IMG/VR virus record: IMGVR_UViG_2541047860_000002
Direction: 5' to 3' (one strand)
DNA: 64,000 bases
Source: a virus
Taxonomy: Duplodnaviria; Heunggongvirae; Uroviricota; Caudoviricetes
Made by a program: the position numbers and the translations under genes. How positions within the stretch are numbered: the first letter of the stretch is position 1; every line of letters starts with the position of its first letter. The notes below the pieces were generated by a model that was not told the origin of the DNA, did not search any database, and saw only the letters and a program-made list of their open reading frames with translations. Shown piece by piece: positions 5,644 through 43,226 of this stretch.

Positions 5644-6585
5644 TTAACTAACAATCCAGTCCGTAGCAACAACATCCTCTGGAGCTAAATCAATCGCATG
5701 GATTTTCCCATCCCGGATAGTGCGCCAGTGCTTTCGTGATCCACCTTCGGGCCATACCCATACACCTTCAGGCCAAGATGCTCGACGGCATACGATTGCA
5801 TACCCTGTTTTAATCCTCTCTCTGGCGGTATGCAACGACAGGTTTGCCTTTGGACTTTCAGGCACAGGATGGTGGATTGCCTGAAACATCCCCATCTTTG
5901 GATGATACCAGCGTTTATTGCGTGGTTCTGCCTCCGACATCACCTGCTTAAAGGCTTTCCGGAAGGGGGCCAGAGCCACAATGGAGCGTCGCGCAAGCAA
6001 GCCATCGGGGGTCAAAAACTCATGTGTATCGGTGGGAATCCGGTAAGCGTTAACCAGGTTGCGGCATTTGGCTTCAGTCAGGCCGCATTTCGCCGCCAGC
6101 TGGCGGTAGCCAATGTAACCTTCCGGCATATTGCCTTTCTTGATTTGCTCGAGTGTTTCAGCAACCATCGATACTTGTGCTGATACCTCGGCTACCTGGG
6201 CATTTACGGCGTTGATCCGGCGTTCATGCTCAAGATGCATTTGCGCCATTTCAGCCAGGATTTCGGCTTTTGATTTTAACTGTACCCGGGCATTCTCCAG
6301 TTCGCGCCAGCGGTCCACTAGCCGGGCGGTAAATTCGGGAGAGAGCTGCGCGACGACAACAATGCTGTCTCGTTTTCCTTGCTCGCCTTCGAAGACATAG
6401 ACCGGATCTTTGACAACCTTCCCTAAGTTATTGATTCTTTCGACGAACTCATTTTGAGTTTCTCGGATGACACCGCTAGCCATCATATTGCGAATGGTAC
6501 GTAAAACATTGCCGTGACGACTACCAACTAACTCTGCAATATCTAGGCTACTCATTGTCGCTTTTTGAGAGATGGACAGATTCAT
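5644..6585 (-). CDS. Rha-family phage regulatory protein (antirepressor-like) fused to a C-terminal DUF2829-like module
   Basis: N-terminal Rha-like region (VFEGEQGKRDSIVVVAQLSPEF...); near-identical paralog at 43223-43930; C-terminal CRRASW...ATDWIVS. Confidence 0.7.
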   Translation of the reverse strand: MNLSISQKATMSSLDIAELVGSRHGNVLRTIRNMMASGVIRETQNEFVERINNLGKVVKDPVYVFEGEQGKRDSIVVVAQLSPEFTARLVDRWRELENARVQLKSKAEILAEMAQMHLEHERRINAVNAQVAEVSAQVSMVAETLEQIKKGNMPEGYIGYRQLAAKCGLTEAKCRNLVNAYRIPTDTHEFLTPDGLLARRSIVALAPFRKAFKQVMSEAEPRNKRWYHPKMGMFQAIHHPVPESPKANLSLHTARERIKTGYAIVCRRASWPEGVWVWPEGGSRKHWRTIRDGKIHAIDLAPEDVVATDWIVS

Positions 6586-6800
6586 CAGTGCACCTCCACG
6601 CAGTTCATCGGCAGATTCCAGTAATTGAGGATCTCCATCGCATCAAGAGTGAAGCGAGCAGCAAAAATGCAGGGTTCTTCGGGAAGGTATGAGCGCGCCT
6701 CTGATTCGGTAGCAGCCATGACGCAGATATACAGGTGCTTTTGGCAGGAATAGAAACGCCAGATAAATTCAGAATGAGTTGGGGTAGGGATAGTAGCCAT
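6585..6800 (-). CDS. Small protein preceding the Rha gene (Icd position of an immI-like module); paralog at 43930-44154
   Basis: 71-aa ORF; shared EFIWRF(Y/H)S.QKH core with the 74-aa paralog; stop overlaps Rha start. Confidence 0.45.
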   Translation of the reverse strand: MATIPTPTHSEFIWRFYSCQKHLYICVMAATESEARSYLPEEPCIFAARFTLDAMEILNYWNLPMNCVEVH

Positions 6801-6862
6801 ATTGGCAGCCTCCTTTTGCTAATTTAAGGAGCTACCGCGTGAGGTCTCAATCTCAATGGCGG

Positions 6863-6938
6863 TAGCACTGGCTGGGTTGAGACTACCGGCGCAAAAGGGA
6901 ACCGGCCTGCCTTTCGGCAGCCCAGCCAGCACTACCAT
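6863..6938 (-). ncRNA. Candidate structured RNA element (16-bp stem, ~44-nt loop) upstream of the Rha module
   Basis: Arms 6863-6878 and 6923-6938 pair perfectly (two G-U) only when the minus strand is transcribed; plus strand gives two C-A mismatches. Confidence 0.3.
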
Positions 6939-6983
6939 TGATCTTGGAGCTATACGCTACGTATGGCTGTGCGATGGCATGAC

Positions 6984-7007
6984 ACAAAAAAAGACGCTTT
7001 CGGCGTC
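6984..7007 (-). terminator. Rho-independent terminator (GACGC-cgaaa-GCGTC + U7) on minus strand
   Basis: Hairpin 6993-7007 followed on the minus strand by a T run (6984-6992). Confidence 0.5.
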
Positions 7008-7112
7008 TGTGTCGCCTTTTGCATTATCCGGGGTCTCAATCCCGGCACCCGTTTTTCTAAGGTGCCGTAGAAATATACCCCACGATAATGCCAGGGCGCA
7101 ACAGTCAGTATT

Positions 7113-16783: not shown

Positions 16784-17173
16784 ATGGGCTTCCCTTCTCC
16801 TGCGGCGGATTATGTTGAAAGCCGAATTTCTCTTGATCAACAACTAATCAGGCATCCATCAGCAACCTACTTCATGCGGGCAGCTGATAGCCATCACCGT
16901 GAGGGAATATTGCAGGGTGCTTTGCTGGTGGTTGATTCTTCGCTTACTCCAGTTGATGGTTCGCTGCTTGTGTGCGCTATGGAGGGTGAATATCGCATAA
17001 AGAGATACAGGAAGTATCCGCGCCAGCACCTGGAGGATTTAAGCACCGGGAAGAAAGAGGCGTTACCAGTAGATGACGATGGATACACGGGCAGTAATGC
17101 TGTTTTTGGTGTGATCACCCACATTATCAATGACGCCAGGGGCGGTGAATTTGATGATAGTCCTGCTATATGA
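16784..17173 (+). CDS. humD: UmuD'-like S24 peptidase (P1 HumD homolog)
   Basis: MGFPSPAADY...; LexA/UmuD C-terminal fold pattern (LLVVD...GE.RIKR). Confidence 0.85.
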   Translation: MGFPSPAADYVESRISLDQQLIRHPSATYFMRAADSHHREGILQGALLVVDSSLTPVDGSLLVCAMEGEYRIKRYRKYPRQHLEDLSTGKKEALPVDDDGYTGSNAVFGVITHIINDARGGEFDDSPAI

Positions 17174-17307
17174 TTTGTTTTCAGAGAAACCATAGAGAGG
17201 CATGACTGGATCTATATCGCCCTGGCCATTTAAATGATTCCTCCCATTAGACGCGGTTACTCACTTGAAGATAAGATGAGGTTATAATTCTCTTTTTAGG
17301 TACGCGA

Positions 17308-17730
17308 ATGAGTTCGTCTGCTTTTGTCACTGTTGTCACTGGAGTAAGCGTTTTTGTCCTAGGTCGACTCATCATCAAGGGGGTTGAGTCTTACATTTCA
17401 TTCAAGGAACAGTTGGGGGAAATATCGCATCTGTTATTGTCTAACCAAGCAAAGCTATCGAATCCCCGCTCTGACTTAAAACAAGAAATCATCCATGATT
17501 TGAAAGATGCGGCAGCACAGTTACGGGTGAAGTACGAACTATTACCTTTCTATATCAAAATGTTACACATCGGTTTTCGCCTTGTTCCATCAGAAACTGA
17601 AATTCGTAAAGCGGCGCAAGAATTGAATCTGATAGCCTCGATACATGACGGTAAAACCGGAGAGCTGCCATATGAGCACATAGCCAAGATTGGATTACTG
17701 CTCAGAATTCCAACCACTTATTCTGCTTAA
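17308..17730 (+). CDS. Hypothetical membrane-anchored protein
   Basis: N-terminal TM helix; 140-aa ORF. Confidence 0.4.
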   Translation: MSSSAFVTVVTGVSVFVLGRLIIKGVESYISFKEQLGEISHLLLSNQAKLSNPRSDLKQEIIHDLKDAAAQLRVKYELLPFYIKMLHIGFRLVPSETEIRKAAQELNLIASIHDGKTGELPYEHIAKIGLLLRIPTTYSA

Positions 17731-17838
17731 TCCCAGCAATTGCAAGACTGCATCTCGAGGATTTAAGGCACCAAGAAGTGGTATTCAGCATCATTAAAAC
17801 CTATAATTGCGTACACATAACGAGCACACGAGGTGTTT

Positions 17839-18060
17839 ATGCAATCCATTAACTTCCGTACCGCGCGCGGCAACCTTTCTGAAGTGCTCAACAATGTTGA
17901 AGCCGGGGAAGAGGTTGAAATCACCCGCAGAGGCCGTGAGCCAGCAGTAATTGTTAGCAAGGCTACTTTTGAAGCCTACAAAAAAGCGGCGCTGGATGCC
18001 GAATTTGCATCCCTGTTTGACACCCTGGACTCCACCAACAAGGAACTGGTTAACCGATAA
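17839..18060 (+). CDS. phd: Phd antitoxin (prevent-host-death)
   Basis: [39 protein letters not shown]... matches P1 Phd as recalled; overlaps doc start. Confidence 0.9.
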
Positions 18061-18440
18061 TGAGGCATATATCACCGGAAGAACTTATTGCGCTTCATGA
18101 TGCGAATATAAGCCGCTACGGTGGCCTGCCGGGAATGTCAGATCCGGGTAGGGCAGAGGCCATTATCGGGAGAGTTCAGGCCAGAGTTGCCTACGAAGAG
18201 ATCAGCGACCTTTTCGAAGTCTCCGCCACCTACCTGGTGGCTACAGCGAGAGGGCATATATTCAATGATGCCAATAAGCGTACCGCGCTAAACAGTGCGC
18301 TGCTATTTCTACGCCGTAACGGGGTGCAGGTATTTGATTCACCTGAACTGGCAGACCTTACTGTAGGCGCTGCGACTGGCGAGATATCTGTATCTTCTGT
18401 CGCCGACACGTTACGTAGATTGTATGGTTCTGCGGAGTAG
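18060..18440 (+). CDS. doc: Doc toxin (Fic-fold kinase, death-on-curing)
   Basis: [25 protein letters not shown]...[19 protein letters not shown]. Confidence 0.9.
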
Positions 18441-18444
18441 ATTA

Positions 18445-18642
18445 ATGGCACGTAAATACAACAAGTTGTCCCGTGAAGCGTTAAAGATGCTTCTTGATGG
18501 CGTGAGTCGCCGCGAGGTAAAGCAATACCTGGTTGGTAAGCAAATTGGTGCCAGGACCGCTATTGCTGTGTTATGCCGTCAGGAAATGGTTGTGCTTAAA
18601 CAGAGAATGCTTGGTAGCAGACAAAGTGCTTCCAGTATTTGA
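18445..18642 (+). CDS. Small hypothetical protein downstream of doc
   Basis: ATG 18445 in frame within track ORF 18424-18642. Confidence 0.35.
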   Translation: MARKYNKLSREALKMLLDGVSRREVKQYLVGKQIGARTAIAVLCRQEMVVLKQRMLGSRQSASSI

Positions 18643-18674
18643 AAAGAAGCCCGCCATACCAAGCGGGCTTTTTG

Positions 18675-19451
18675 TTATTTCACCTCTTCTGCCGCTGTAT
18701 CATTGGACTGTTCTTCTTTGGCCCGTTCTGCAATCGCCGCACGGCATTTCGCCCTGGCTGTAGCGATTGCTTCTGCTCGCACATCGTCTGGAATCGTTGA
18801 CGTGATATACATATCCAGTTCTTCGGCACGGAATACTGTTTGGTCCAGATATTCGCGTAGCATCCAAGTAAATTCGAAATCACACGCGATAATCTCTGCG
18901 CTACCTTCTGCACCATTTGGGAAATGAATAAATGCCTGTTTAGCCAAACCGATAACACGACATGCGGTTGCCAAAACAGCGACAACCAGGTTTACATTTT
19001 CACACGCTACGGGCTGATTAACGCCGGAGATTACTCCATTTAACTGTCGGTTATATGGAAGGTAGTTTGAGATGCGTTCTACGCGCCATGTGCCAGTCAG
19101 GCTGCCATTCTTAAAGATAATTGGTGTAACGGATAGCCCAAGCTCGCGTATAAGTCGTTGCGCTATAGCAGGATCATTAAACATGTCTAATGCTACACAT
19201 TCGAAAGACTGTGCAAGGGTAAACAGTTCTTCCAGAGAGTAGTCTTTGCCCCTGGCGGTGATGTAACGATGAACGCCGCTTTCTGCATCGCTCCATATAG
19301 CTACGCCATGCTCTTCATTCAGCTCTTCATTAAAGCCGAGATACGTCATGATAGTACGTTCAATCGTGTCAAACGGCAGTGACATGTCGGCGTTAACAGC
19401 CACCAGCAGGCCATTACGCAAGCGGTATTGAATTGCTTTAGTATTTTCCAC
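18675..19451 (-). CDS. Hypothetical protein
   Basis: 258-aa ORF. Confidence 0.45.
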   Translation of the reverse strand: MENTKAIQYRLRNGLLVAVNADMSLPFDTIERTIMTYLGFNEELNEEHGVAIWSDAESGVHRYITARGKDYSLEELFTLAQSFECVALDMFNDPAIAQRLIRELGLSVTPIIFKNGSLTGTWRVERISNYLPYNRQLNGVISGVNQPVACENVNLVVAVLATACRVIGLAKQAFIHFPNGAEGSAEIIACDFEFTWMLREYLDQTVFRAEELDMYITSTIPDDVRAEAIATARAKCRAAIAERAKEEQSNDTAAEEVK

Positions 19452-19457
19452 GTTAAA

Positions 19458-20135
19458 TCACTCCACTACAAACCAGTCACATGCCAGTAAGTCGCCTACA
19501 GAAGGAACCCACGGAACAACTACACCTTGTGCATTTTTTAAGGCGAAATAAGCACCATACGGAACGAGGTCGCCGGGGAAATATCCCTTAATGGCTTCCA
19601 TTCGTGCCGGGTACTGTCCTTCAGGAACCAGCCAGCAGAATTGGTTTTCGCCGTTCCACCCGCGTCGAGCAACTTTCTTGCCATCCTTCAGCCACATCAG
19701 CGCGTCAGAAAAGTCGGCTGCTTCAAGGTCGATTTCTTCTTGCTGGGTGGTGATGCCACCAGCAGAAATAGTTACGCTCCCGGTAAGATTAATCATCACG
19801 CCGTTGTCATCCGTAATGATGACCGTGGTTCCATTTTTGGAGGCGTCGTTAACCAGGCCATAGCGTTCCTCAAATGGTTTCTCCGGGGCATAGAACAGAT
19901 AACCGTTTTCATAAACGATCAGATACCCGCCAGTTTTTGGTCGGTGTTTTTGTAAAAACATTGCGTCAACACAAACTGTTGCCCCTTTTGGTTCAACGAG
20001 TTCGATGCAGCCCCAAAGTGGGGCATCAGTTACTCCGAAAATAACAACATTTTTGATTTTCGATGCACTAACGTTTTTGTGAGCTTTGTATTTGGGAAGG
20101 AACTTAAAAAGCTCTTTCGTTGCCATGTTATTCAT
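19458..20135 (-). CDS. Protein with C-terminal DUF2829-like (Tad2-like) domain
   Basis: C-terminus ...ALMWLKDGKKVARRGWNGENQF...PWVPSVGDLLACDWFVVE. Confidence 0.5.
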   Translation of the reverse strand: MNNMATKELFKFLPKYKAHKNVSASKIKNVVIFGVTDAPLWGCIELVEPKGATVCVDAMFLQKHRPKTGGYLIVYENGYLFYAPEKPFEERYGLVNDASKNGTTVIITDDNGVMINLTGSVTISAGGITTQQEEIDLEAADFSDALMWLKDGKKVARRGWNGENQFCWLVPEGQYPARMEAIKGYFPGDLVPYGAYFALKNAQGVVVPWVPSVGDLLACDWFVVE

Positions 20136-20149
20136 AGTCTTTTCTCTGC

Positions 20150-21458: not shown

Positions 21459-21515
21459 AGCACCCTCCGAAATAGGCGAGGGTACTTTACAGCAAAGATA
21501 ACAATCTAAAAAGAT

Positions 21516-27389: not shown

Positions 27390-27782
27390 CTACCAGCGAG
27401 ACAAACGAACAACATGTTTCACTTTTGCGATCCACTTTCCGCGATAACTATTGATTACGGCCTGTGCCAGCTTCAAATTGGCTTCAAAATCAGCCTTACT
27501 ACCATCAGACTCCACCAGCATTCCTCCATCTATTTCTGGTAAACATAGATAATCCTGCTCAACCTGCAGCGGCATTGATGGCTCTCTGAATGGCGTTACT
27601 TGCTCTGCTTTCCAGCGAAATCTAACCCTCATCCCCCTGGTGGTCATTACTAGATAGCCTGTTATAGTGCTTTTATGGCCCACATCAGTACGCGTGGCAT
27701 TGCATGACACGATCTTACAGTTAGCGATAGACCACTCCATATTGGTGGCCTGTTGAGTGCTTAATTTGGTAGTCCCGTACAT
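27390..27782 (-). CDS. Hypothetical protein
   Basis: 130-aa ORF. Confidence 0.4.
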   Translation of the reverse strand: MYGTTKLSTQQATNMEWSIANCKIVSCNATRTDVGHKSTITGYLVMTTRGMRVRFRWKAEQVTPFREPSMPLQVEQDYLCLPEIDGGMLVESDGSKADFEANLKLAQAVINSYRGKWIAKVKHVVRLSRW

Positions 27783-28357
27783 CAGAAAGCCTCCCAGTCA
27801 GTCGCGATAATATCCACACCAGTTGCAAACCAGTCTGTCTGCGCCTGTAAATCCCCATTCATCATTACCAGGCGAGGCATCACCATCACATCGCACCCTT
27901 CCACAATATCGAATGCCTCTTCCGGCAAGAATTCGAAGAGCTTTTCTTTGCTGCCAATGCTGCCACGGAACATCGATATATAGCTCCCTTTAGGCCATGA
28001 TGTCCGCCGGGCATCAAGCCCTTTCATCATCCAGTAAAAAGCCGAGGAAAAAGGGATATTCTTTTTGCCAATGATTACATTATTCGCTTCTGTGTACTTC
28101 AGGAACTTAACTAACCTTACCATTGACTCGGATAACGCAACGTATGGCTCATGATTGATTGCTGACACGCTTACACCGTGCAATCCAACGCTTACCACTG
28201 TCATATCGCCGCTCTGTGCGGTTTCGATATTGACGCCTTTGCGAACTAATGAGGCGTAAAGTTCCTCTCGCTTTTGGGTCCAGCGTTCCCGCTTCCCTAT
28301 GAAGTCACTCAAAATGAGATCTTCTTCTGCATATGCGTTATCGTTCGCCATTAACAT
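27782..28357 (-). CDS. Protein with C-terminal DUF2829-like module
   Basis: ...YWMMKGLDARRTSWPKGSYISMF...DWFATGVDIIATDWEAF. Confidence 0.45.
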   Translation of the reverse strand: MLMANDNAYAEEDLILSDFIGKRERWTQKREELYASLVRKGVNIETAQSGDMTVVSVGLHGVSVSAINHEPYVALSESMVRLVKFLKYTEANNVIIGKKNIPFSSAFYWMMKGLDARRTSWPKGSYISMFRGSIGSKEKLFEFLPEEAFDIVEGCDVMVMPRLVMMNGDLQAQTDWFATGVDIIATDWEAF

Positions 28358-28887: not shown

Positions 28888-28896
28888 AGATTACTG

Positions 28897-29028: not shown

Positions 29029-29041
29029 GTTATCTATTTGG

Positions 29042-29869: not shown

Positions 29870-30086
29870 TAATCAATTTCCTGGTTTTTTCACGAAAAAA
29901 GACTACTGCAAAAGCCGGGTAAATGAGCGCGAGAAGGACTCCCAACAATACAAGTATTGTGCTGTCAGATGAGATCATATTTGGCAAAAGCCAAACATAC
30001 AGAACCAGTGACACAATCAAACAGAGGACGACATAAATATATAACCGCACCCATAGCGTTCGACATTTGTTCGGATTGTTCTGCAT
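29850..30086 (-). CDS. Small membrane protein upstream of plp
   Basis: 78-aa ORF with two hydrophobic helices. Confidence 0.45.
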   Translation of the reverse strand: MQNNPNKCRTLWVRLYIYVVLCLIVSLVLYVWLLPNMISSDSTILVLLGVLLALIYPAFAVVFFREKTRKLINEKNVD

Positions 30087-30349
30087 CCTCTCACTCCATT
30101 ATTTACCGAATAAAAAAGCTGCGGTGCCTGGTGCCTCCAGGTGACGTTAACCAGTTAACAATTAACGCCGGGATGTTTGACTTAACCACTAAGGAGGATT
30201 GTTTTAACTGTTCCGCGTGCGCTTAGCCGCATTCACCGCAATGGTAAGAGCACTTGGCTGGCTGGGCGGCGATGACGCCTGTACGCATTTGGTGATCCGG
30301 TTCTGCTTCCGGCATTCGCTTAATTAGCCAAATACTCTTAACGTTGCAC

Positions 30350-30436
30350 TGGCGGAGAGTAATGGAATCGAACCATCATCGCTTGCGCAATGGGACGGTT
30401 TTCAAGACCGCTTGAGCACCATGCTCCCTACTCTCC
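30350..30436 (-). tRNA. tRNA-Ser-like (UGA anticodon, long variable arm, atypical short D-loop)
   Basis: Perfect 7-bp acceptor stem, anticodon loop CTTGAAA, T-arm GATGG-TTCGATT-CCATT, CCA encoded. Confidence 0.55.
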
Positions 30437-30533
30437 AGTGATTGTGATGGTCGGTGCTGAACTCCGACACAGGGTTGTAGCAAGCCCCGCAAAGCGCGCA
30501 CTACTGTAGTTGCGGCACATCAGCCTGTGCATT

Positions 30534-30633
30534 CACCACAATGTTGAGAACACTGGTTGTCACGCTGCAACGCAACATTTATTCATAGATTGGGATATGA
30601 CCCCGTTACGCCAGTGTTCTCAACGTTGTGGTG
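30534..30633. repeat. 23-bp inverted repeat (CACCACAATGTTGAGAACACTGG / rc) with 54-nt loop; related copies at ~30233 and ~30765
   Basis: 22/23 match between 30534-30556 and rc of 30611-30633. Confidence 0.6.
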
Positions 30634-30838
30634 CCGGTTACGGTTCCGGCCAGGCCTCTTCCTCAACGGGGTGTTCTCCATACGGACTACCGTTTATTGG
30701 TCGTTCCTGCGGTTTATGTTGTGAAGCCAGATGCTTATCTTCTGGTTGCTTCAAAGAGCTGCACTTCATCACAACGGTAAGAGCACTCGATGCATTTAAG
30801 CCAAGCCCCATAAGGGAGAATGCCCTTACCTGTTGTGT

Positions 30839-30914
30839 TGGTGCCGGTTAACGGACTCGAACCGCTGACATCCTGCTTACAAGGCAGGCGCTCTACCAAC
30901 TGAGCTAAACCGGC
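30839..30914 (-). tRNA. tRNA-Thr (UGU)
   Basis: GCCGGTTTAGCTCAGTTGGTAGAGC...CTTGTAA...GGTTCGAGTCC...CCA. Confidence 0.85.
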
Positions 30915-30918
30915 AATT

Positions 30919-31005
30919 TGGTGGGGAGTGATGGAGTCGAACCACCCGAGTCGCAATGACAGTAGATTTACAGTCTACCCCGCTACCCCTACGGACTAAC
31001 TCCCC
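30919..31005 (-). tRNA. tRNA-Tyr (GUA), type II
   Basis: GGGGAGT acceptor, anticodon loop CTGTAAA, long variable arm, GGTTCGACTCC T-loop, CCA. Confidence 0.85.
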
Positions 31006-31010
31006 TAAAT

Positions 31011-31087
31011 TGGCGATGGTGGGTGGATTCGAACCACCGACCGACAGCTTAGAAGGCTGCTGCTCTATCCTACTGAGCTACACCATC
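31011..31087 (-). tRNA. tRNA-Arg (UCU)
   Basis: GATGGTG acceptor, GCTCAGTAGGATAGAGC D-arm, anticodon loop CTTCTAA, GGTTCGAATCC, CCA. Confidence 0.8.
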
Positions 31088-33643: not shown

Positions 33644-33958
33644 TTACTGTGTTGCAGCCTGATAAATAAGATACGCGATAAATACAGGTACGATGGCCCA
33701 TTGCAGCAATGAAAGTAGCCTCATTACTGTTATTGGGGTAACTCCATCCACGTATTGTTTCTCTGACATTTTCCCTAACCAACTAACCGACAACAGTGCC
33801 GAGTTTTCCCCCAATTCCAGCTCTCTGAGAGCTTCACGGATTAACGGCGCTGTCACAGCCTTAACCGGCGTGCTCAACGTGATACTCCGCGTCCTCCCCG
33901 CATCGTCAGCGAACGCCAGACTCACATGATATTTTTTGCTCAATGCACAAACTCCCAA
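33644..33958 (-). CDS. Hypothetical protein with C-terminal TM helix
   Basis: 104-aa ORF. Confidence 0.4.
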   Translation of the reverse strand: MGVCALSKKYHVSLAFADDAGRTRSITLSTPVKAVTAPLIREALRELELGENSALLSVSWLGKMSEKQYVDGVTPITVMRLLSLLQWAIVPVFIAYLIYQAATQ

Positions 33959-34140
33959 TCATCAGCGCTTGCACTTTCCGGGGTTATGTGAACCTTATCG
34001 CCAGTAACAATATTGCGAGCTTCAAAACTTCCATTGATACGTTTCGAGATCTCAATACATAGAGCCTGCTGCCATGAGCGACGACGAGCGATAGCATTAG
34101 TTCCTGCAGGGATAAGTTCTGCCACGTTAAGTAAACGCAA
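33940..34140 (-). CDS. Small protein with RRRSW ... ADDWEFV signature (DUF2829-like, short)
   Basis: 66-aa ORF; same terminal signature as four other ORFs. Confidence 0.35.
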   Translation of the reverse strand: MRLLNVAELIPAGTNAIARRRSWQQALCIEISKRINGSFEARNIVTGDKVHITPESASADDWEFVH

Positions 34141-34154: not shown

Positions 34155-34617
34155 TTAATCAAGACAAACATACTCCGTGATAGCTTTTATGGCTTCAGCG
34201 GCACTGCGCGCCTCAAAGCAGTAGTAACCGGCTTCAGTGAGGCGGGTCATCCAGACGAGTTGTTCGGGAGTCAGGCGATTTCTCCCATGTTTCATCTCAA
34301 TGCGCATTCCGTGGTATCCCCCCACAAGCAAGGTCTATAGAAAGATCGGGATATCCCTTCTTTTGGCCCTCTGCCACCATTTTTATTGCCGTCCTTATGC
34401 CTCGCAGGCCACCGTTTGGAGTGGCGTGAGTATGCTCATACACATAACGCATATTGCGATACAACCAGTCCAGGACGCGAACCTGCTCGTAATGCTCATG
34501 GTTCCTTTTGATTAGATCTGGGTTTTTCTCCAGTTCTCTAAGAGCTGCGGCATGTGGGGATGTTTCAGAATATTCACTGCGACGCCTTCTCTTTCGCGCT
34601 ATTTTTCTAACACACAT
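34155..34617 (-). pseudogene. VRR-NUC domain nuclease gene interrupted by a frameshift at a C6 tract (34318-34323)
   Basis: N-part ...GYPDLSIDLACGG then, in the adjacent frame, YHGMRIEMKHGRNRLTPEQLVW... completes the PD..(I)E(M)K nuclease core. Confidence 0.6.
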
Positions 34618-34620
34618 ATT
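34604..34620 (-). promoter_or_regulatory. Operator-like motif (rc TGTGTGTTAGAAAA, copy h) overlapping the VRR-NUC start
   Basis: Overlaps ATG 34615-34617. Confidence 0.4.
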
Positions 34621-34786
34621 GATAGTAAATATGCGAAATAATAACAACAACGTTAGATTTATAAAACAAGAGAGATACTACTCAAGGATGGTCTATATGC
34701 AACAGGTCGGATTTGCTTTTAGAGTAAAGAGTGACCTTAATCAACAAGGAGGGTAAATCGCATGGCATTTACCCAACCTGTTATTT

Positions 34787-35520: not shown

Positions 35521-38500
35521 TTAAGCCGCATCGGCGATTATTTTACGCAGTTCATCTACCGAGTAACGCGTAGATACCATCCACGCCGGACGGTCAAAGT
35601 CCACATCCGCGACAGGATTCACTTCAAAATTCCAGAAACGCCCGCCAATCTTCTTAATCGCGTCTTTGGCGTTCCGTATTGTCGAGGAACCTGGTTGGTC
35701 GGCAATGAGATAAACCGCGCCAACGTCCTCGCTGACGCTCCACCAGCGCCCGCGAACACGCGCCTTAGCGCGAATAGGCTTATCATTAACCACAATGATA
35801 TAGTCATCATTTGCCGCTTCATCAGCTCTGGCTTCAGCCACTGCCGCCTGCTCTTCTCTTTTGCTTTCAGCCTGCTCAAGCCTTTCCGCGATCTCTGATT
35901 CAGTGGCCCCGCCGTTTTTCAGCGATACATAGTCCTGCCACGTTGCCGATTTGAGCGTATCCGGCAACTCATTCACATAGTCGCCATCTTTCAACTCACG
36001 GGCGCGGCGGGTAGCCATTTCTACCAGGCGATTAACAGAAACAGCATCAGCAAAATCGTCCTTACTAATGTGTTTTTCATCAAATGCATTGATGACAGCC
36101 CCCACCTTAATCCACTGTGCTGCCGGTGATTCCAGGGGGTTATCAGCCTGGACAATGGCGAGTTTCGCTCCATCTACCCCATTATTCGCCAACTGTTCCA
36201 GCGCCGCCCATCCATCTGCATCACTGAGTGATTTATATTGCTCAAACAATGCATCGCGCCAGGCCACCAGCGCAGAACGTGTTTTTTCGATCTTCGCCTT
36301 AATTTTCGCGATCTTGACCTGATTAAACATCCGTTCAATATCATCGATATTGCTAAAGGCTTTCATCCTGCCCTGGAATAAACGGTATGCCAGCACGGTC
36401 CTCCAGAATGATTCCAGACCTTCTCCGGACGGTTTACGGAACAAGCTAAGAATATCTTCAGAAGTGACTTTATTAAGCGAACGACCTGACAGACCACGCC
36501 CAGCCATCCAGTTTTCGAACTCCTTGGCAACATCATCCATCGTTGCCTGTGCGCCCCATGCCTGCATTCCCTGGATGTAATCATACCCATACAATGCCTG
36601 GAGGAATCCCTCTCCGTCCACGATATTCAGCGGGTTATCACTGGCTTGTATTTTTGCCACTTCACGCTTCAGCGCCTCGTCGTTGCCATCAGGATATATC
36701 CATCGTTCAGGTGCTATATCCGATGCTCGCCCGATTTTTTGGCCTATCACGCCATCATAGGTCGATGACAGCGCGATCTGCCCATCATCTGTGCGATAGG
36801 CCCAGTATTTAATAGCTGATCCACCGCCCCATGCATTACCAGGTTTACCAGCAATAACATTCATTACCCCATTGCGAATAGCATCATAGAACTGATCGCG
36901 AGTAAGTATTGTTGATAGCTGGTGGCACTGAACACCACGCGCAGCCGTTGCGCGCGATTCAGCAACCCCCTCTTCAAAAGTTACCGCTTCAATCACAGAG
37001 TCAAACGGCAATGTAACGATTGACCCCGGTGATCGAGCGTAACGACTTGCTCTATCCAGCCAGGCGATACGACAGATGTATTGTGCTTTTTCACCGTCAA
37101 TTTTTTCCACCCGGACAATCGCTGTTGTTTCGCGATCATCAATGACTGCACGGTAATAACTACCTTTATGCAACAGGATATTCTTGTCAGTGCGCATATA
37201 TTCCTGTGGGTTCTGAATAACATCGATACTGATATCCAGCACACCAGACTTAATAGCGCGCTCCACATCACCACGAGAGCGTTTCATTATGGTATCCGCG
37301 TCTTTTGCCCTGGTGATCGCAAACCGCAGCACCCGCGCACGTTTTCTGTAGCTACTCAACTGCTCAAGCGCGTATTTTTGCCCATTCCTGTTCGTACCCG
37401 CTTTTATCAGGTCGTCAAGATTGCGCTGGTAATACTCTATCTGTTCCATCGCGCTTTTCAGTTCTGTCTCCATCATGCCGATATCTTTTCCGGCGGCGTT
37501 TGCCGCTTTCAGGTAGATATCGAGAGCATTGTTGGCCTCGCGCTGTGCTTTCAGTTTCAGACGTTCTTCACGCTCTTGCGCCTGGCGAGCCATGATTGCG
37601 CGGCGTTCTTCCGGGTTTGCCGCCAGCATAATGGCGCGTTCATCAGCATCATCCACATCACCATTGGCGATCTCTGACATGTCGGAGGTCATCACCATCT
37701 TGATCCAGTCTTTCTTACGTTTCAGCGTATCCAGACGGAAGTCGTCGAATGTGCCTTTGCCACAATAGTAGTGAACATTGACCTTCTCTTGCGGTGAACC
37801 TACGCGCGCACCGCGCCCATTTCGTTGGTCGATACTGGCTGGTGTCCAGGGTAGTGTCAGGTGGTGGATATCGGTTGTCCCGATGTGCAGGTTAATACCT
37901 ACTTCAGCCTTCTTGTTACAGATTATGATGCGCGTGCGACCTTCGTTATAGTCGGCGGCAATACCTTCCATGCCCTCAAGGCCAGCATCATTTTTAGCTG
38001 AGAGATAATCCTCATATTGGGCAAGTTTGCTGTAGTAGGTTTCCCATGCCCCTTCTTTGTATTCACCGTTTTTGTTTGGAGTAGGTTCGGTCGGCTTATT
38101 CACCTTCTTCAGCTTGATGCCGCCAGCCTGGCTAACTGTCGTCGCATTGATAATGCCAATCTCCTGCTCCGGCATTTGCAGTGCACTGGCGATAATACGG
38201 CGCAGCTTCTGGTGCTGGGCTTTTTCATCAATAAAGACGATCTGCTTACCGTTCTTCAGACCTTCACGAAGATTTTCGATCAGCGCGGCATACTTCGGCG
38301 GGATGGGGTGCGATACCTGCTGCATATCAATACCGGCAGCCGCAATGGCCTTCAGTATTTCAGCTTCCAGTTCAATGCTGGCACGTATTTCAACATGCGT
38401 CGGATGTTCACTAAAAGCGGTCTTCACTACCTTGCTGGTACGCGTACTGACCAGCCCGCCAGCGCCGTCTTCCTCGGCCTCATCAACATCATCTGCCACT

Positions 38501-41500
38501 TTACCACCAGCTACTTTTGGCAAGGCATCAGCAATAGCTTTTACCTGGTCTGCAAGCTCAACGGGGAACTGGAATGTAATCGCACTGGCATACAGATCCG
38601 GGTCTATAGCAACCTTGTCCATGTCACGGATGATGGAGAAGATGAAATCATCCGGTTTGTCGTTAGTGATATGCCCGTTTTCATCGACTGTCAGCTCATC
38701 ATTGCGACTTAACTCCTGAGCACGCTTACGAAGTTCTTCATAAGCAGACTCCTGCTCCCCTGTCATCGGGATCTGCAAGGTGTTCTCGATGATGTCGGGA
38801 ATTTTAACCGTCGCTCCGACATCTGCGGCAGTCTTCAGAGTGGTCCAACGATGGAAAATACCACGCAGGCCATCAAGGTTCTGGAAGCCCACCAGCCCCT
38901 GCTTCTCTTCCACTTCCCCGGAAATTTTCTGGACCTGAACTGTGGCTGTTTTGCCAAACACACGAACGAAATCATCAGGCGTAATGATGCCCATGCGCAT
39001 CCACTCTTCCTGCGGAATGACAGTAGACAGCATGTTGAAGGCATCAATCGGACTGTTCACCAGCGGAGTTGCCGTCAGCATGACTACACCACGTCCGTTG
39101 TTGCGTTTCATCATGTACGCAGCTTTTACAGCCATGTCGCGGGCCATCTTGGATACTGCCGGGTTAGGCAAATATGCCAGTTGTCCCGCTTCACGCCCGG
39201 CATTAAAGGAGTTGCGGTAGTTATGCCCCTCGTCGGCAATCACGCTATCGAAGTTCATATCCTCAAAGTACGGGATATTCTGCTTCTTCGTTGTACCGGT
39301 ATTCGCGGCCTGATCCTTAATCTTGTTCTTCTTCTGTGCATCACGGTGTTTGCCAGACGCCAGGTCAAGACGCCCCATTTCCACAGCATTAAAGACAGCT
39401 TGCTGTGAGTTCTCCTCGATGGTTTTTTCTCGTAGCGGGATAGACGCGAATTGTTCTTTTGTCATGATGACCGTTCGCCAATTTGACGACGGGATCATGT
39501 TCATGCGCTGAACGATAACGGCGCTGGCGGACTCTTTCACAACATTTCTGGTAAGAGGCTGCCCGTTACTGTCGAGGCGTGGTTCGCCATTTTCATCAAG
39601 CACCGGCGCGGTCAGAATATTTCCGCTGTCATCACGAACTTCATCCAAACCGATAAACATCATATTGGCGAAGGCATCAGCACTGTAGAAACTCTGTGCC
39701 TCGTGATACCAGTTCTGATAAACCGCCTTCGGAACAACAATACACGTGCGTTTAGTGCGACCTGTTTCGAAGTTATACGCCTCAAGCGCAAGCGCGGTCG
39801 TGGTTTTACCCAGCCCGGTACCAAATCCCATGATGCCGCGCCCATCTTCTGACAAGCGACGAACTTCTTCATTTTGATAAGTCAGAGGAATGCGCTTTCC
39901 ACTAATCCCTTCCAGGCCAAGCGGTGCGTTAGAGTGCGTGAACGGAATGAAGCCATTGAATGCGTCGTTATAGTCACGGGCTATCTGATCCGCCTGCGGG
40001 TGGGTGCGTAACCAGTCGTTAAAGCTAACTTCCAGTTGAGCAATTTTATCCAGGTACTCGTTAGCGTTCTGCCCACGCGGTTTAACACCGTTCAGGTAGT
40101 TTTCTAACTGGTTCAGGAAGCCGTCTTTATTGTTGGCCTTCTTGAACTCATTCCCGTTTTTGCCGTTTACGGTTCGTAGCTGATAGCCGGTAAATACCCC
40201 GTCCTTACCTTCGTAATCGTCCGGAGATACCAGAATGCCATCGACGACCTTCAGATCAGGTTCAGTGTACTTAAACTCGTCATAGCCCTGCTCTGCCAGG
40301 AACTCTTTTATCAAGCGGCGATCCAGCCAGCGGGCATTCAGATTAACGGTGACTTTATTTAGTGGCGTGAAAATGCGTTTCTCTTCGATTTTCGCCAACT
40401 GACGCTCAAAGTTCGCTTTCTGCTCACCTGTTGACGCATCACGCCAGCCCACCAGCAATGCTGTTTTGGTTGCAATATCGCCGCTGGTGGCGCGGTCCAT
40501 CGGCAGCAGGCAGCCATACCCATCAATAGCGATATCATCAAATTTCGCTAGGTATTCAAGGGCCGCGTCGTCGTCCTCTGGCAATTCACCAGCAAACGCC
40601 TCACGAAAGTCGCCCAGCGTTATAGGATTAAGGGCTACATCACTGAAAAGATGTGCTATCACTTGTTCAGGACGTGTAAAGTCAATACCGGCAGCACCAT
40701 CCGTTACATCAAGTCGCCCTGCCAGAAGGTCAGAAGTGGAACCATCCTGTTTCACATTGCCAGTGAACGTCATCCAGTTTTTAGCGCCAGCTTCAGCAAG
40801 CCCATTCAGCTTAATCGCGTGCGGTGGTCCATACTTCGCAACTTCTGCTGCCGCCAGGCGGGATGCATCTGCCAGTTTGTCATCAACGTTCACCCCCAGG
40901 TTACGCAAATCAAGTGCCTTGTTGATCAACTGCCCTATCAGCGCACCGCGCATAACGCGCTCTCTGTCTTTTTCTCGCTGCTTGCCAGCAAAGCGAATCA
41001 TTGCTGCCACTTCATCACTGACAACCGATGGATAGTCGGACGCGATCGCCGATATCTGGTCCCATGACAAAGCCAGAATCCCGTTTGTTGACTGGAACGC
41101 GATCTGCAGATCGCCAAACGTCGAAACACCATATCGACTTACATCAAGCGCGGAGGATTTGGTTGTCGTGTCCTTAACCCATTTCAGGCCATCAAACTCA
41201 TGCCAGATACCGCCTACAAGGCGTTTATCGCCCACTTTCGCGCCCTGCCATGCCTGAGTAGTTACGCCGAGCAAATCCCAATTGATGCGACTATCAAAGC
41301 GACGAGATAGCGCGGTTTTCATCGACTCATTGGATACACGGCCGTCTTTTTTCACCACTAGGGTATTGCGGAAGCTGGTACGTTCCATGTCGCCGTAAAC
41401 AAACCGCTTCCCTTCGGTTGTAAACCATTTTCCTTTGAGGAAGGTATCCCAAAGGACGTTTGCCGATTTGAGCGTGGCATCATCCGTGTCGGGGATCATC

Positions 41501-42357
41501 TCCAGGAAGGTTTCCGGGTGTTTACGCAATACCCATACGTCCACCACGGTATCTGTACCGGATTCGCTGAACGTACCAGAAGGCATACGATGTGCGGCCA
41601 AAAATTCCGCTTTACGGCTGACTTTATCGCGCAATTTTTTGTATTTCGTACCATCGGTCATGCCATTCGGCACCACCAATACGATAAGCCCACCAGGCTT
41701 AACCTTGTCGATCGTGCGCAACACAAAATAATTGCCAACGTTCTTCTCGTTTGCATATGCCGGATCAAGCCCGGCAACGCCGGAACGCCCTTCACCAAAC
41801 GGTACGTTACCAACAGCGTGGTCATACATTGCATCTTTCGCCGCCAGCGCCTCAAACGCCCCGATATTCACATCGTCTTCCGGGTGCAAAAGCTGGTTTA
41901 TTCGACCAGAAATCGGAGACAGTTCGGCGCTGGTCATTATCATGCCCTGCCGTTTTGTCTCCTGGAAAATACCTGTGCCCGCTGATGGTTCCAGTACGTG
42001 CCCGCCATCAATACCGTAGTCAGCAAACAGATCCCATATACCTTCAGCCATAAACTGTGGCGTGTAGTATTCGTATTGGCTGCCCTCACCATCTGTCAGG
42101 CCGCCTTCACCGGTATACCCGGCAAGAATCTGACGTTGTTCGTCAGTTAATTTCGCCCCATCGAAGCCGGGCGGAAGGGAATTAAGAAGATTTACTGCGG
42201 CGTTGTTTGCTGCACGGCGTGTTTTCTGAATACTGACGCCATCGGCTTTCCTGACGCCAAAGGTCGCAACAGCACGTAATTTATGCAACCGACTAACAAT
42301 TTCAATCAGTTCGCCTAAGCTGGAGGCTTCACTGATTGAATGAAGTAATTTGTCCAA
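35521..42357 (-). CDS. darB: DarB-like giant N6-adenine methyltransferase + SF2 helicase (capsid-packaged antirestriction protein)
   Basis: 2278 aa; MTase motifs (EPSAGTG, GNVPFG); helicase motifs GFGTGLGKTT, DEGHNYRN, LTATPLVNS, QRNGRGARVGS. Confidence 0.85.
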   Translation of the reverse strand: MDKLLHSISEASSLGELIEIVSRLHKLRAVATFGVRKADGVSIQKTRRAANNAAVNLLNSLPPGFDGAKLTDEQRQILAGYTGEGGLTDGEGSQYEYYTPQFMAEGIWDLFADYGIDGGHVLEPSAGTGIFQETKRQGMIMTSAELSPISGRINQLLHPEDDVNIGAFEALAAKDAMYDHAVGNVPFGEGRSGVAGLDPAYANEKNVGNYFVLRTIDKVKPGGLIVLVVPNGMTDGTKYKKLRDKVSRKAEFLAAHRMPSGTFSESGTDTVVDVWVLRKHPETFLEMIPDTDDATLKSANVLWDTFLKGKWFTTEGKRFVYGDMERTSFRNTLVVKKDGRVSNESMKTALSRRFDSRINWDLLGVTTQAWQGAKVGDKRLVGGIWHEFDGLKWVKDTTTKSSALDVSRYGVSTFGDLQIAFQSTNGILALSWDQISAIASDYPSVVSDEVAAMIRFAGKQREKDRERVMRGALIGQLINKALDLRNLGVNVDDKLADASRLAAAEVAKYGPPHAIKLNGLAEAGAKNWMTFTGNVKQDGSTSDLLAGRLDVTDGAAGIDFTRPEQVIAHLFSDVALNPITLGDFREAFAGELPEDDDAALEYLAKFDDIAIDGYGCLLPMDRATSGDIATKTALLVGWRDASTGEQKANFERQLAKIEEKRIFTPLNKVTVNLNARWLDRRLIKEFLAEQGYDEFKYTEPDLKVVDGILVSPDDYEGKDGVFTGYQLRTVNGKNGNEFKKANNKDGFLNQLENYLNGVKPRGQNANEYLDKIAQLEVSFNDWLRTHPQADQIARDYNDAFNGFIPFTHSNAPLGLEGISGKRIPLTYQNEEVRRLSEDGRGIMGFGTGLGKTTTALALEAYNFETGRTKRTCIVVPKAVYQNWYHEAQSFYSADAFANMMFIGLDEVRDDSGNILTAPVLDENGEPRLDSNGQPLTRNVVKESASAVIVQRMNMIPSSNWRTVIMTKEQFASIPLREKTIEENSQQAVFNAVEMGRLDLASGKHRDAQKKNKIKDQAANTGTTKKQNIPYFEDMNFDSVIADEGHNYRNSFNAGREAGQLAYLPNPAVSKMARDMAVKAAYMMKRNNGRGVVMLTATPLVNSPIDAFNMLSTVIPQEEWMRMGIITPDDFVRVFGKTATVQVQKISGEVEEKQGLVGFQNLDGLRGIFHRWTTLKTAADVGATVKIPDIIENTLQIPMTGEQESAYEELRKRAQELSRNDELTVDENGHITNDKPDDFIFSIIRDMDKVAIDPDLYASAITFQFPVELADQVKAIADALPKVAGGKVADDVDEAEEDGAGGLVSTRTSKVVKTAFSEHPTHVEIRASIELEAEILKAIAAAGIDMQQVSHPIPPKYAALIENLREGLKNGKQIVFIDEKAQHQKLRRIIASALQMPEQEIGIINATTVSQAGGIKLKKVNKPTEPTPNKNGEYKEGAWETYYSKLAQYEDYLSAKNDAGLEGMEGIAADYNEGRTRIIICNKKAEVGINLHIGTTDIHHLTLPWTPASIDQRNGRGARVGSPQEKVNVHYYCGKGTFDDFRLDTLKRKKDWIKMVMTSDMSEIANGDVDDADERAIMLAANPEERRAIMARQAQEREERLKLKAQREANNALDIYLKAANAAGKDIGMMETELKSAMEQIEYYQRNLDDLIKAGTNRNGQKYALEQLSSYRKRARVLRFAITRAKDADTIMKRSRGDVERAIKSGVLDISIDVIQNPQEYMRTDKNILLHKGSYYRAVIDDRETTAIVRVEKIDGEKAQYICRIAWLDRASRYARSPGSIVTLPFDSVIEAVTFEEGVAESRATAARGVQCHQLSTILTRDQFYDAIRNGVMNVIAGKPGNAWGGGSAIKYWAYRTDDGQIALSSTYDGVIGQKIGRASDIAPERWIYPDGNDEALKREVAKIQASDNPLNIVDGEGFLQALYGYDYIQGMQAWGAQATMDDVAKEFENWMAGRGLSGRSLNKVTSEDILSLFRKPSGEGLESFWRTVLAYRLFQGRMKAFSNIDDIERMFNQVKIAKIKAKIEKTRSALVAWRDALFEQYKSLSDADGWAALEQLANNGVDGAKLAIVQADNPLESPAAQWIKVGAVINAFDEKHISKDDFADAVSVNRLVEMATRRARELKDGDYVNELPDTLKSATWQDYVSLKNGGATESEIAERLEQAESKREEQAAVAEARADEAANDDYIIVVNDKPIRAKARVRGRWWSVSEDVGAVYLIADQPGSSTIRNAKDAIKKIGGRFWNFEVNPVADVDFDRPAWMVSTRYSVDELRKIIADAA

Positions 42358-42507
42358 AGGATTTCCCCCTCTAAACCGTAAAAATTCCGCTATGCGGTAC
42401 GGTTGAGAGGGTATGGAGAATGTTATTTTCAGGGGGACGATACTACCGTCAAAATCACATACTCCCCATAGTTTGCCTACTTATTAACCCATGACCGGGA
42501 GAAAAAT

Positions 42508-42993
42508 ATGGCAAACATTGAACCTCGCTGGCTAATTGAAGCCCGTAAGCACATTGGCCTGACTGAAATAAAAGGCGCTAAACACAACCCTGAAATCGTT
42601 CAGTTCTGGCGCGACATCAAGCGCGGCGGAATTAAAGACGATGAAACGCCGTGGTGCGCAGCATTTGTCGGTGCAATGCTGGAACGTGTAGGCATCCGCT
42701 CAACAAGATTTGAGTCGGCAAAATCCTATCTGGATTGGGGCGAGAAATTAGATACACCGGCATACGGATGTATCGTTGTATTTACCCGCGTAGGCGGTGG
42801 GCACGTAGGCTTCGTTGTCGGACGCCGCGCCAATGGCGATCTGCTTGTCTTGGGTGGGAACCAGGGGGATGCGGTTAATATTCGCGCATTCCCAACATCA
42901 AGAGTGTCAGGCTATCGCTGGCCTGCTGGCGAACCACGCAATACCGCTCTGTTACCAGTCGGAGACGCAGCAACCTCAACTAATGAGGCATGA
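42508..42993 (+). CDS. CHAP/NlpC-P60-like peptidoglycan hydrolase (phage TIGR02594-like)
   Basis: Catalytic Cys (PWCAAFVG) and His (GGGHVGFVV) context. Confidence 0.55.
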   Translation: MANIEPRWLIEARKHIGLTEIKGAKHNPEIVQFWRDIKRGGIKDDETPWCAAFVGAMLERVGIRSTRFESAKSYLDWGEKLDTPAYGCIVVFTRVGGGHVGFVVGRRANGDLLVLGGNQGDAVNIRAFPTSRVSGYRWPAGEPRNTALLPVGDAATSTNEA

Positions 42994-43025
42994 AAAAAGC
43001 CCCGGCCAGGCCGGGGCATCACGCT

Positions 43026-43226
43026 TCAAGTCACGATCCAATCATTACCGACAATATCAGCCGTCGATAAATCAACTTCCCGGATCTGGAGTCCATTAAT
43101 ACAAAACCATCCGGTAGTAGAGTAATTATCAGGCCAGGCCCATACACCAACACTCCATGCTTTACGGCGGCACACTTCAGCCTGTCCTTCCCTGATTTTT
43201 TTTACCGCCTGCATGATGTCCATCAC
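43026..43226 (-). CDS. Stand-alone DUF2829-like small protein
   Basis: 66 aa; ...VCRRKAWSVGVWAWP...DLSTADIVGNDWIVT; corresponds to the fused C-terminus of ORF 5644-6585. Confidence 0.45.
   Translation of the reverse strand: MMDIMQAVKKIREGQAEVCRRKAWSVGVWAWPDNYSTTGWFCINGLQIREVDLSTADIVGNDWIVT

Follow-up and report, generated by a model that had tools for sequence, protein, structure and literature searches.

The window analysed here, a stretch of 64,000 nucleotides, comes from a D6-like P1-type phage-plasmid; it is 96-98% identical to phage D6 and 100% identical to E. coli plasmids of about 92 kb. An initial annotation had proposed that five open reading frames, at 5644-6585, 19458-20135, 27782-28357, 33940-34140 and 43026-43226, share a C-terminal signature. 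All five are encoded on the minus strand, where the translations give the quoted peptides, including KDGKKVARRGWNGENQF...DLLACDWFVVE in 19458-20135. A plus-strand reading of the same coordinates was ruled out because its translations are full of stops. We wrote the signature as R[RK].?[SAG]W, 20-90 residues, DW, 2-4 residues and a stop, and searched it against the six-frame translation of the window, cut at stops into segments of 30 aa or more. Of the 1,145 segments, exactly the five ORFs matched; across 500 residue shuffles the mean was 0.002 matches and the maximum 1. Another ORF, 52888-53385, also ends in DWxx but was rejected, as nothing else about it resembles the family. Neither the pattern nor three HMMs run with filters off detected a sixth copy, whether in the window or in the 41.5 kb of phage D6 beyond it.

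Two of the signatures lie in operons of the immI type. In operon 1, a C4 antisense RNA (6855..6942, minus strand; Rfam RF01695, 76 bits against a gathering score of 45) precedes an icd-like gene (6585..6800, minus strand), which the D6 annotation describes as similar to P1 icd, and Ant1 (5644..6585, minus strand; D6 orf82), a 313-aa Rha-family antirepressor. The Rha domain predicted for this ORF was confirmed at the N-terminus (PF09669, E=5.6e-9), and the protein also matches phrog_63 Ant (E=3e-62). Operon 2 contains a C4 RNA (44202..44287, minus strand; RF01695, 69 bits) with its a1/b1 target element at 44355-44407 (RF03163, 54 bits), an icd-like gene (43930..44154, minus strand) 45% identical to the first, and Ant2 (43223..43930, minus strand; D6 orf18), a 235-aa Rha-type antirepressor (HTH_24 E=3e-7, PF09669 E=1e-5). 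Residues 1-237 of Ant1 are 66% identical to Ant2 (BLASTP E=9e-111), and the end of Ant2 corresponds to the start of the Ant1 linker. Beyond this linker, residues 249-313 of Ant1 (5647..5841, minus strand) form a mini-module, here called Ant-C. In operon 2 the equivalent module is a separate 65-aa protein, orf17 (43026..43223, minus strand), encoded by the last cistron. The longer ORF 43026-43226 probably starts at the ATG at 43223-43221, as in the D6 annotation, so that it overlaps the ant stop; the Ant2 stop and the orf17 start share TGATG. Just past the orf17 stop lies an intrinsic-terminator-like hairpin (42999..43017, minus strand) with 8 G-C pairs followed by TTTTTT.

Thus both loci have the arrangement that defines a P1-type immI, a C4 RNA upstream of icd and an antirepressor on one strand, in the same order as c4, icd and ant of P1. 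Unlike P1 immI, the antirepressors here are of the Rha family and each operon closes with a Tad2-like mini-module. A second c4-icd region in D6-like plasmids has been noted earlier (PMC6799933). Judged from the gene arrangement, the mini-module is translationally coupled to ant in operon 2 and fused to it in operon 1. Because both modules end C4-controlled icd-ant operons, they would be made together with the antirepressor once C4 control is lifted. The P1 C1-operator consensus gave one match, which is at chance level, and no match was obtained with a late-promoter pattern. Scans for sigma-70 promoters found no excess over shuffles, and we draw no claim on the timing of expression from promoters.

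The ORF at 19458..20135 (minus strand; copy 2) encodes a 225-aa homologue of D6 orf114, with a Dec-like N-terminal region and a C-terminal Tad2 domain (residues 137-225; 19461..19727, minus strand). It had been named as the best DUF2829 match of the five, and so it is: PF11195 (formerly DUF2829; curated gathering score 25 bits) matches residues 141-224 with E=1.8e-22 and 80 bits. The same label, DUF2829 domain-containing protein, is already attached to it in the D6 RefSeq record and in E. coli plasmids. Among Tad2 proteins of solved structure, it matched ModTad2 (9eib) with E=6e-21, HgmTad2 (8kbi) with 1e-11 and SPO1 Tad2 (8sme) with 1e-9. The published ligand contacts of Tad2 are W25, N26, G27, W73, S76 and D79 in SPO1 numbering. 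These six positions are conserved in 14-15 of the 15 members of an independent Tad2 set, and alignment to the solved Tad2s shows all six in copy 2, which carries the complete signature W-N-G/W-S-x-D.

The closest known relative of the copy 2 domain is ModTad2, or MoTad2, of a Myroides odoratus prophage (PDB 9EIB, 8V3E), with which it aligns end to end at 45% identity over 89 aa. The beta2-beta3 region has 44 residues in copy 2 and 43 in ModTad2. His-ADPR is a ligand of ModTad2, which counters both type II Thoeris and Pycsar; TmoTad2 and CcaTad2 are its tested homologues. As a member of the ModTad2 clade, copy 2 is most likely a signal sponge, which would oligomerise and sequester the ADP-ribose signals made by TIR proteins. 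Our best guess for its ligand is His-ADPR of type II Thoeris, and cyclic mononucleotides may be further ligands. We regard copy 2 as one probable sponge.

In contrast to ModTad2, an 89-aa stand-alone protein, copy 2 carries an N-terminal extension of 136 residues. Within it, residues 56-126 (19758..19970, minus strand) showed a weak phmmer match to residues 53-122 of the 137 of phage L Dec (PDB 6E3C; E=0.008, 19 bits), with the motifs GGYL..G.L.Y..FE..Y and I.LTG.VT.SA in common. The segment has no Pfam match and ends in a tail-fibre-like repeat. Phage D6 itself has an in-frame deletion of residues 21-99. The copy 2 gene is surrounded by the non-structural genes dut, cre-like and isaA-like. 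The part of Dec matched by copy 2 forms trimers. Tad2 sponges, on the other hand, are homotetramers built of two V-shaped dimers packed via helix alpha2. Tad2 homologues that carry a 6E3C-like domain are frequent enough for a large sponge survey to have purposely excluded them. The Dec-like fusion, with trimers set against tetramers, and this exclusion leave the sponge role of copy 2 on less firm ground than its domain match implies.

The ORF at 27782..28357 (minus strand; copy 3) encodes the 191-aa product of D6 orf6, directly upstream of orf5-lpa-pacA-pacB. About 100 N-terminal residues are followed by a divergent full-size Tad2-like domain (residues ~103-190; 27785-28051, minus strand), which matches PF11195 with E=1.1e-9 and 39 bits and an independent 15-sequence Tad2 HMM with E=7e-5. 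A homologue with 51% identity and a precomputed PF11195 assignment is present on a divergent 90-kb element. Copy 3 departs from the canonical six-residue pocket: it reads W-P-gap/W-T-V-D, so that both Trp and the Asp are kept and, unlike in SPO1 Tad2 and HgmTad2, Pro occupies the N26 position. Copy 3 may be a sponge with altered specificity, and we count it as one possible sponge.

The third mini-module is orf11 (33940..34140, minus strand), a 66-aa protein with a TTG start encoded between the pmgM and pmgR homologues. It is not adjacent to an ant gene. For these three short modules the proposed DUF2829 resemblance was harder to establish than for copies 2 and 3, the two that exceed the 25-bit gathering score of PF11195. 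Full-length orf17 reached 15 bits (E=0.03). PF11195 was the top Pfam match for 7 of 8 isolated orf17/Ant-C modules, with a best E of 0.012 for isolated Ant-C, still sub-threshold, and it matched 2 of the 12 members of the orf11 family, also below threshold (best E=0.15). NCBIfam and PADLOC searches returned nothing relevant. Nothing but near-identical proteins and frameshifted fragments came from word-indexed homologue searches with orf17, orf11 and the Ant C-terminus, and these contributed little to profile building. PDB sequence matches of the shallow family profiles (for example MHC, Fc receptor, CtdA) were dismissed as chance.

Ant-C and orf17 are 40% identical (E=2e-17), Ant-C matches phrog_7385 (E=1e-13), and profile comparison links the orf11 family to the orf17/Ant-C family (87%, P=4e-6). 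When an HMM built from the mini-modules alone was run against 1,859 segments, its sole outside match was copy 3 (E=0.007). A Tad2 HMM of three sequences proved too weak, as copy 3 itself scored only E=0.03, and a four-sequence hhalign reference gave only 48% for this true positive. The early low scores thus reflected the depth of the reference, and a window-independent profile of 15 Tad2 sequences was built. With this profile copy 3, the positive control, reached 89.9% (P=1.7e-6) in hhalign, and the merged mini-modules reached 81.5% (P=1.1e-5) over 64 columns, of which only the N-terminal 32 were confidently realigned. The merged match stood at z=12 against column shuffles, and a reversed control gave 0.1%. 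Taken separately, the two mini-module families gave 25% and 7%, the latter for orf11; in another comparison orf11 alone was not significant against Tad2 (P=0.05). The profile comparison leans towards membership of a divergent Tad2-like subfamily. The three modules of about 65 aa would be remote, lineage-restricted derivatives of Tad2, nearer to copy 3 than to copy 2.

SPO1 Tad2 (gp34.65; PDB 8SME) and HgmTad2 (AcrIIA7; PDB 8KBI) are the founding gcADPR and dinucleotide sponges of PF11195. The Tad2 fold consists of alpha1 and an antiparallel sheet of five strands, with alpha2 placed in the beta2-beta3 loop and alpha3 ahead of beta5. The fold order alpha1-beta1-beta2-...-beta4-alpha3-beta5 is probably common to all five modules of the window, which share R22, W25, D84 and W85. 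The mini-modules, however, have only 23-26 residues from the GWNG loop to beta4, compared with 43-60 in Tad2s. About 20 residues are missing, and helix alpha2 is among them; in SPO1 Tad2 this helix builds the V-dimer, and in HgmTad2 the dinucleotide pocket. Their pockets read W-S-gap/V-S-D in orf17, W-P-gap/I-A-D in Ant-C and W-Q-gap/gap-T-S in orf11, and none has the canonical six residues. N26, G27 and W73 are absent from all three; W25 is kept, and orf17 and Ant-C also keep S76 or D79. Because they have lost the beta2-beta3 insertion together with N26, G27 and W73, the mini-modules probably lack the canonical tetrameric pocket. A reduced dimeric pocket is conceivable, since these contact residues are retained and the pocket-forming protomer pair in SPO1 Tad2 differs from the alpha2 dimer.

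The orf17-type module was found in 122 plasmid records, mostly at two places per record. A tblastn search detected the Ant/orf17-type module in no deposited phage except D6, and hence not in P1. The homologues of orf11 and orf6 retain their synteny in an element with 50% divergence. A stand-alone 81-aa protein of the Ant-C type (P0015) was set aside as a probable rearrangement remnant; its neighbours are an IS element and a cre-like gene, and no ant gene precedes it.

From homology tiers, residue patterns, operon anatomy and distribution, all observed directly, we judge it rather probable that the window encodes five related modules of the PF11195/DUF2829 fold, a diverged family with three functional tiers. 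The five nucleotide sponges put forward initially are thus only partly borne out: the predicted functions read better as a probable sponge, a possible one and three derivatives that lack part of the canonical pocket. That all five are functional sponges, a battery against Thoeris types, Pycsar and CBASS, seems to us very unlikely. Every module can be tied to the Tad2-like family at some level, and the family is versatile, with members that bind 3'cADPR, His-ADPR, N7-cADPR, cUMP/cCMP and dinucleotides. The mini-modules keep the four invariant residues and have an extra Arg (RR) by the Trp, which could touch phosphates, and a position in an immI operon gives immediate-early expression, which would fit an anti-defence factor. 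Against this, the mini-modules have lost ligand-contacting residues conserved in 14-15 of 15 canonical Tad2s, and, with alpha2, the insertion that the V-dimer and the second (dinucleotide/cUMP) pocket require. Moreover, one is joined covalently to an antirepressor of 248 residues, for which the sponge literature examined offers no parallel, and orf11 lies among pmg genes annotated with putative morphogenetic functions in the D6 record. It is unlikely, too, that the three short ORFs are not Tad2 homologues at all, their R-R-x-x-W...D-W being convergent mimicry on a small beta-rich fold, which would leave just two real Tad2-like genes. Their Pfam scores are sub-threshold and a Foldseek search of the orf11 model against the PDB returned nothing significant and no Tad2; the merged-profile match leans towards common descent.

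A possible, if doubtful, alternative sees the mini-modules as accessory or specificity domains that serve the antirepressor system and have no small-molecule role. They would bind Ant, a C1-type repressor or another partner, or oligomerise; orf11, the third paralogue, would have been recruited to another setting. Fusion of Ant and module in one C4 operon, with a split at a 1-nt stop/start overlap in the paralogue, is a classic sign of functional linkage. Furthermore, the module is more diverged than the Ant body (40% against 66% identity), as would be expected if it set the specificity of two immunity systems residing together; both versions are retained in most of the 122 plasmids, and the pocket residues are lost. 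The quicker divergence could also stem from relaxed constraint, however, and orf17 is a separate polypeptide, so that covalent linkage is unnecessary. Because orf11 is a conserved stand-alone paralogue away from any ant gene, an Ant-specific role cannot account for all three modules. We give little credence to the further idea that the Ant-attached module is a ligand-sensing or -sequestering domain through which an immune or stress nucleotide of the host acts on the C4/Ant lysis-lysogeny switch, so that the plasmid prophage might, for instance, be derepressed when host signalling defences fire, or that it is a new minimal dimeric sponge of novel specificity. If true, either would put the Tad2 fold to a use not described before, within a phage immunity circuit. 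We prefer to read the mini-modules as small, self-contained binding domains that would act with or beside Ant, and not as sponges of the classical type.

Tad2 sponges are a major route by which phages get past signalling-based immunity such as Thoeris, Pycsar and CBASS. Sponge surveys rely on profile matches and filter multi-domain forms. Such surveys would miss several forms present here: a Dec-like–Tad2 fusion, a divergent two-domain protein, and a derivative of about 65 aa that falls under Pfam thresholds and is kept in more than 100 phage-plasmids of E. coli, Salmonella and Shigella. Clinical and livestock Enterobacteriaceae commonly carry D6-like phage-plasmids, whose counter-defence repertoire is therefore of practical relevance. 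Binding of ligands or Ant partners by the mini-modules would connect anti-defence protein folds with the immunity circuits of prophages; if they bind neither, they still show how far the Tad2 fold can shrink.

The five proteins that the initial annotation had read as putative DUF2829/Tad2 nucleotide sponges, from a shared C-terminal RRxSW...DW signature, are all encoded by real ORFs, but these lie on the minus strand. A plus-strand reading of the five coordinate ranges was ruled out, the translations being interrupted by stops; the quoted peptides were recovered from the minus-strand translations, with the signature closing all five. When the signature was run as a regular expression against the 1,145 stop-to-stop segments of all six frames, these five ORFs were the only matches (chance expectation: mean 0.002 matches over 500 shuffles). 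Unfiltered HMM scans of the window, and of the 41.5 kb of phage D6 that lie outside it, revealed no sixth copy. The window shares 96-98% identity with a P1-like plasmid prophage, Escherichia phage D6, and positions 17000-23000 of the window are identical to ~92-kb E. coli plasmids, e.g. CP057521.1. The genes correspond to D6 orf82 (5644-6585, annotated Ant), orf114 (19458-20135, DUF2829 domain-containing protein), orf6 (27782-28357), orf11 (33940-34140) and orf17 (43026-43226), the last three annotated as hypothetical; public annotation recognises only one of the five module genes, orf114. At the level that BLAST detects, this genome counts as having one copy, as do ~95% of the phages with a Tad2 domain (295 places across 280 phage records).

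The strongest case is copy 2, the 225-aa protein of 19458-20135. Its residues 141-224 matched PF11195 (Tad2-like) with E=1.8e-22 and 80 bits, well above the cut-off of 25, which upheld the DUF2829 assignment, itself already public. This domain is 45% identical to the solved ModTad2 (9EIB/8V3E; E=6e-21) and also matched HgmTad2 (E=1e-11) and SPO1 Tad2 (E=1e-9). ModTad2 is a His-ADPR sponge that blocks type II Thoeris (10.1101/2024.01.03.573942); cUMP/cCMP are further ligands of this protein, which blocks Pycsar as well (PMC12393519). The published gcADPR contacts of SPO1 Tad2 are W25, N26, W73, S76, T78 and D79, with counterparts W21/N22/G23 and S90/T92/D93 in HgmTad2. Copy 2 retains every one of these contact residues, which are conserved in 14-15 of 15 independent Tad2 domains. 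Judged by its sequence, copy 2 is a probable sponge of the ModTad2 clade. A complication is a weak match (E=0.008) of its residues 56-126 to Dec of phage L (6E3C), and a recent sponge survey dropped Tad2 homologues with a 6E3C-like domain for a reason not stated there. Compared with copy 2, D6 orf114 (D6 19959-20399) lacks residues 21-99, the Dec-like N-terminal part, through an in-frame deletion, and its Tad2 domain is intact and identical. BLAST detects relatives of the Tad2 domain in 280 phage records; the form with both domains is present in SJ46 (74% identity) and in Klebsiella phage SopranoGao.

The N-terminal residues ~11-99 of copy 2 (window 19461-20135, minus strand) were found alone or otherwise combined in unrelated phages (Escherichia phage Bas106, Ralstonia phages AhaGv and p2110), and thus behave as an independent mobile module. 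A dUTPase gene (20150-20644, minus) lies directly upstream of the Tad2 gene, as in Bacillus phage Shanette; this adjacency may be a coincidence.

Copy 3, the 191-aa protein of 27782-28357, likewise passed PF11195 (39 bits, E=1.1e-9), in line with the initial annotation, and matched a window-independent Tad2 HMM with E=7e-5. Its beta2-beta3 region is full-size (50 residues), and the pocket pattern is W-P-gap / W-T-V-D, so that N26 and G27 are lost. No match was found for its N-terminal ~100 residues. D6 is the only deposited phage with copy 3; a homologue with 51% identity and a precomputed PF11195 match occupies the equivalent position on a divergent 90-kb element. These features make copy 3 a possible sponge with an altered pocket.

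The remaining three are mini-modules of ~65 aa: orf11, orf17 and the C-terminus of Ant1 (Ant-C, Ant1 residues 249-313). None reached the Pfam cut-off, orf17 giving a full-length but sub-threshold match (15 bits); PF11195 was nevertheless the top Pfam match for 7 of 8 isolated orf17/Ant-C modules. orf17 and Ant-C are 40% identical (E=2e-17) and share phrog_7385. The orf11 family is tiny (~7 representatives among 1.84 billion proteins) and aligned with the orf17/Ant-C family over the full length (87% probability, P=4e-6). Against a Tad2 reference of 15 sequences, none from the window, the merged mini profile gave 81.5% probability (P=1.1e-5, 64 columns, z=12 versus column shuffles), compared with 0.1% for the reversed control and 89.9% for copy 3 as validated positive; taken separately the families gave only 25% and 7%, and no more than 32 columns were confident after realignment. 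AF2 models computed from the alignment of each family (pLDDT 87 and 78) showed the Tad2 element order without helix alpha2, and Foldseek of the orf11 model against PDB gave no significant match. We consider it quite likely that orf17 and Ant-C are homologous to Tad2, and somewhat less so for orf11. Copy 3 was the sole outside match of a mini-only HMM (E=0.007 of 1,859 segments), which did not match copy 2, and the RRxSW of the minis agrees with copy 3 and differs from the xRRGW of copy 2. Together these suggest a copy-3-like ancestor.

Two of the mini-modules stand at the end of paralogous immI-type units. The C4 antisense RNAs of operon 1 (6855-6942, minus; Rfam 76 bits) and operon 2 (44202-44287, minus; 69 bits) are each followed directly by an icd-like gene and a Rha-type ant gene; the icd-like genes are 45% and the ant genes 66% identical. 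In operon 1 the mini-module is the Ant C-terminus; in operon 2 its ATG overlaps the ant stop (TGATG), with a strong terminator downstream. An isrK-like Hfq-binding sRNA (6987-7065, minus; RF01394, 59 bits, gathering score 50) sits close upstream of the operon 1 C4 RNA, and the equivalent place in operon 2 holds a C4 a1/b1 target element (44355-44407, RF03163). A second c4-icd region of D6-like plasmids was noted earlier (PMC6799933). Modules of the orf17 type are present in 122 plasmid records, in most cases two per record; of 50,697 phage records, only that of D6 contains the type. On E. coli contigs (L007-L009) an 81-aa stand-alone Ant1-type module, annotated 'transcriptional regulator', lies with a cre-like recombinase on one side and an IS element on the other and lacks an upstream ant gene; it is probably left over from a rearrangement.

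orf11 is flanked by homologues of pmgM and pmgR and lies just downstream of darB-ulx, a synteny kept in a 50%-diverged relative. Compared with D6, the adjacent pmgM homologue (34155-34650, minus) has a 1-bp indel at ~34318 that breaks it into two overlapping ORFs, which reflects either a pseudogene with a frameshift or an error in sequencing; pmgM homologues elsewhere match VRR_NUC nucleases weakly. The DarB-like helicase/methylase gene (35521-42357, minus; 2,278 aa) with ulx, and the ddrA/ddrB/darA/hdf homologues further along in D6, indicate a P1-type Dar anti-restriction system. Five tRNA genes at 28812-31087 (minus; Met-CAT, Ser-TGA, Thr-TGT, Tyr-GTA, Arg-TCT) replace a segment annotated in D6 with Ser, Thr and Asn only; the resemblance to phages Ro157c2YLVW, RCS47 and P1-like records instead of D6 points to mosaic replacement.

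The claim of five sponges therefore finds partial support: it probably holds for copy 2, with its full pocket, and possibly for copy 3, but does not extend readily to the minis. Their spacing from GWNG loop to beta4 is 23-26 residues, versus 43-60 in canonical Tad2s, where this region carries helix alpha2, which builds the V-shaped dimer, and an insertion that forms the dinucleotide/cUMP pocket. Because this region is short and N26, G27 and W73 are missing, the minis probably do not act as sponges of the classical kind. What they retain (R22, W25, D84 and W85) is invariant across the fold, so the RRxSW...DW signature marks the fold, not the pocket. In SPO1 Tad2 the protomer pair forming the pocket differs from the alpha2 dimer, and orf17 and Ant-C keep D79; a reduced dimeric pocket is thus conceivable. 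That the minis would act as minimal sponges nonetheless seems rather unlikely to us. We favour, tentatively, small binding domains acting with or alongside Ant, two of the three (Ant-C and orf17) being fused to or co-expressed with antirepressors. No mention of the mini-modules was found in the literature that could be searched, and the subfamily appears to be undescribed, as do its Tad2 link and its joining to C4-controlled antirepressors by fusion or coupling. What the evidence supports best is a family in three tiers, in which copy 2 would be a probable sponge, copy 3 a possible sponge with an altered pocket, and the three mini-modules derived forms.
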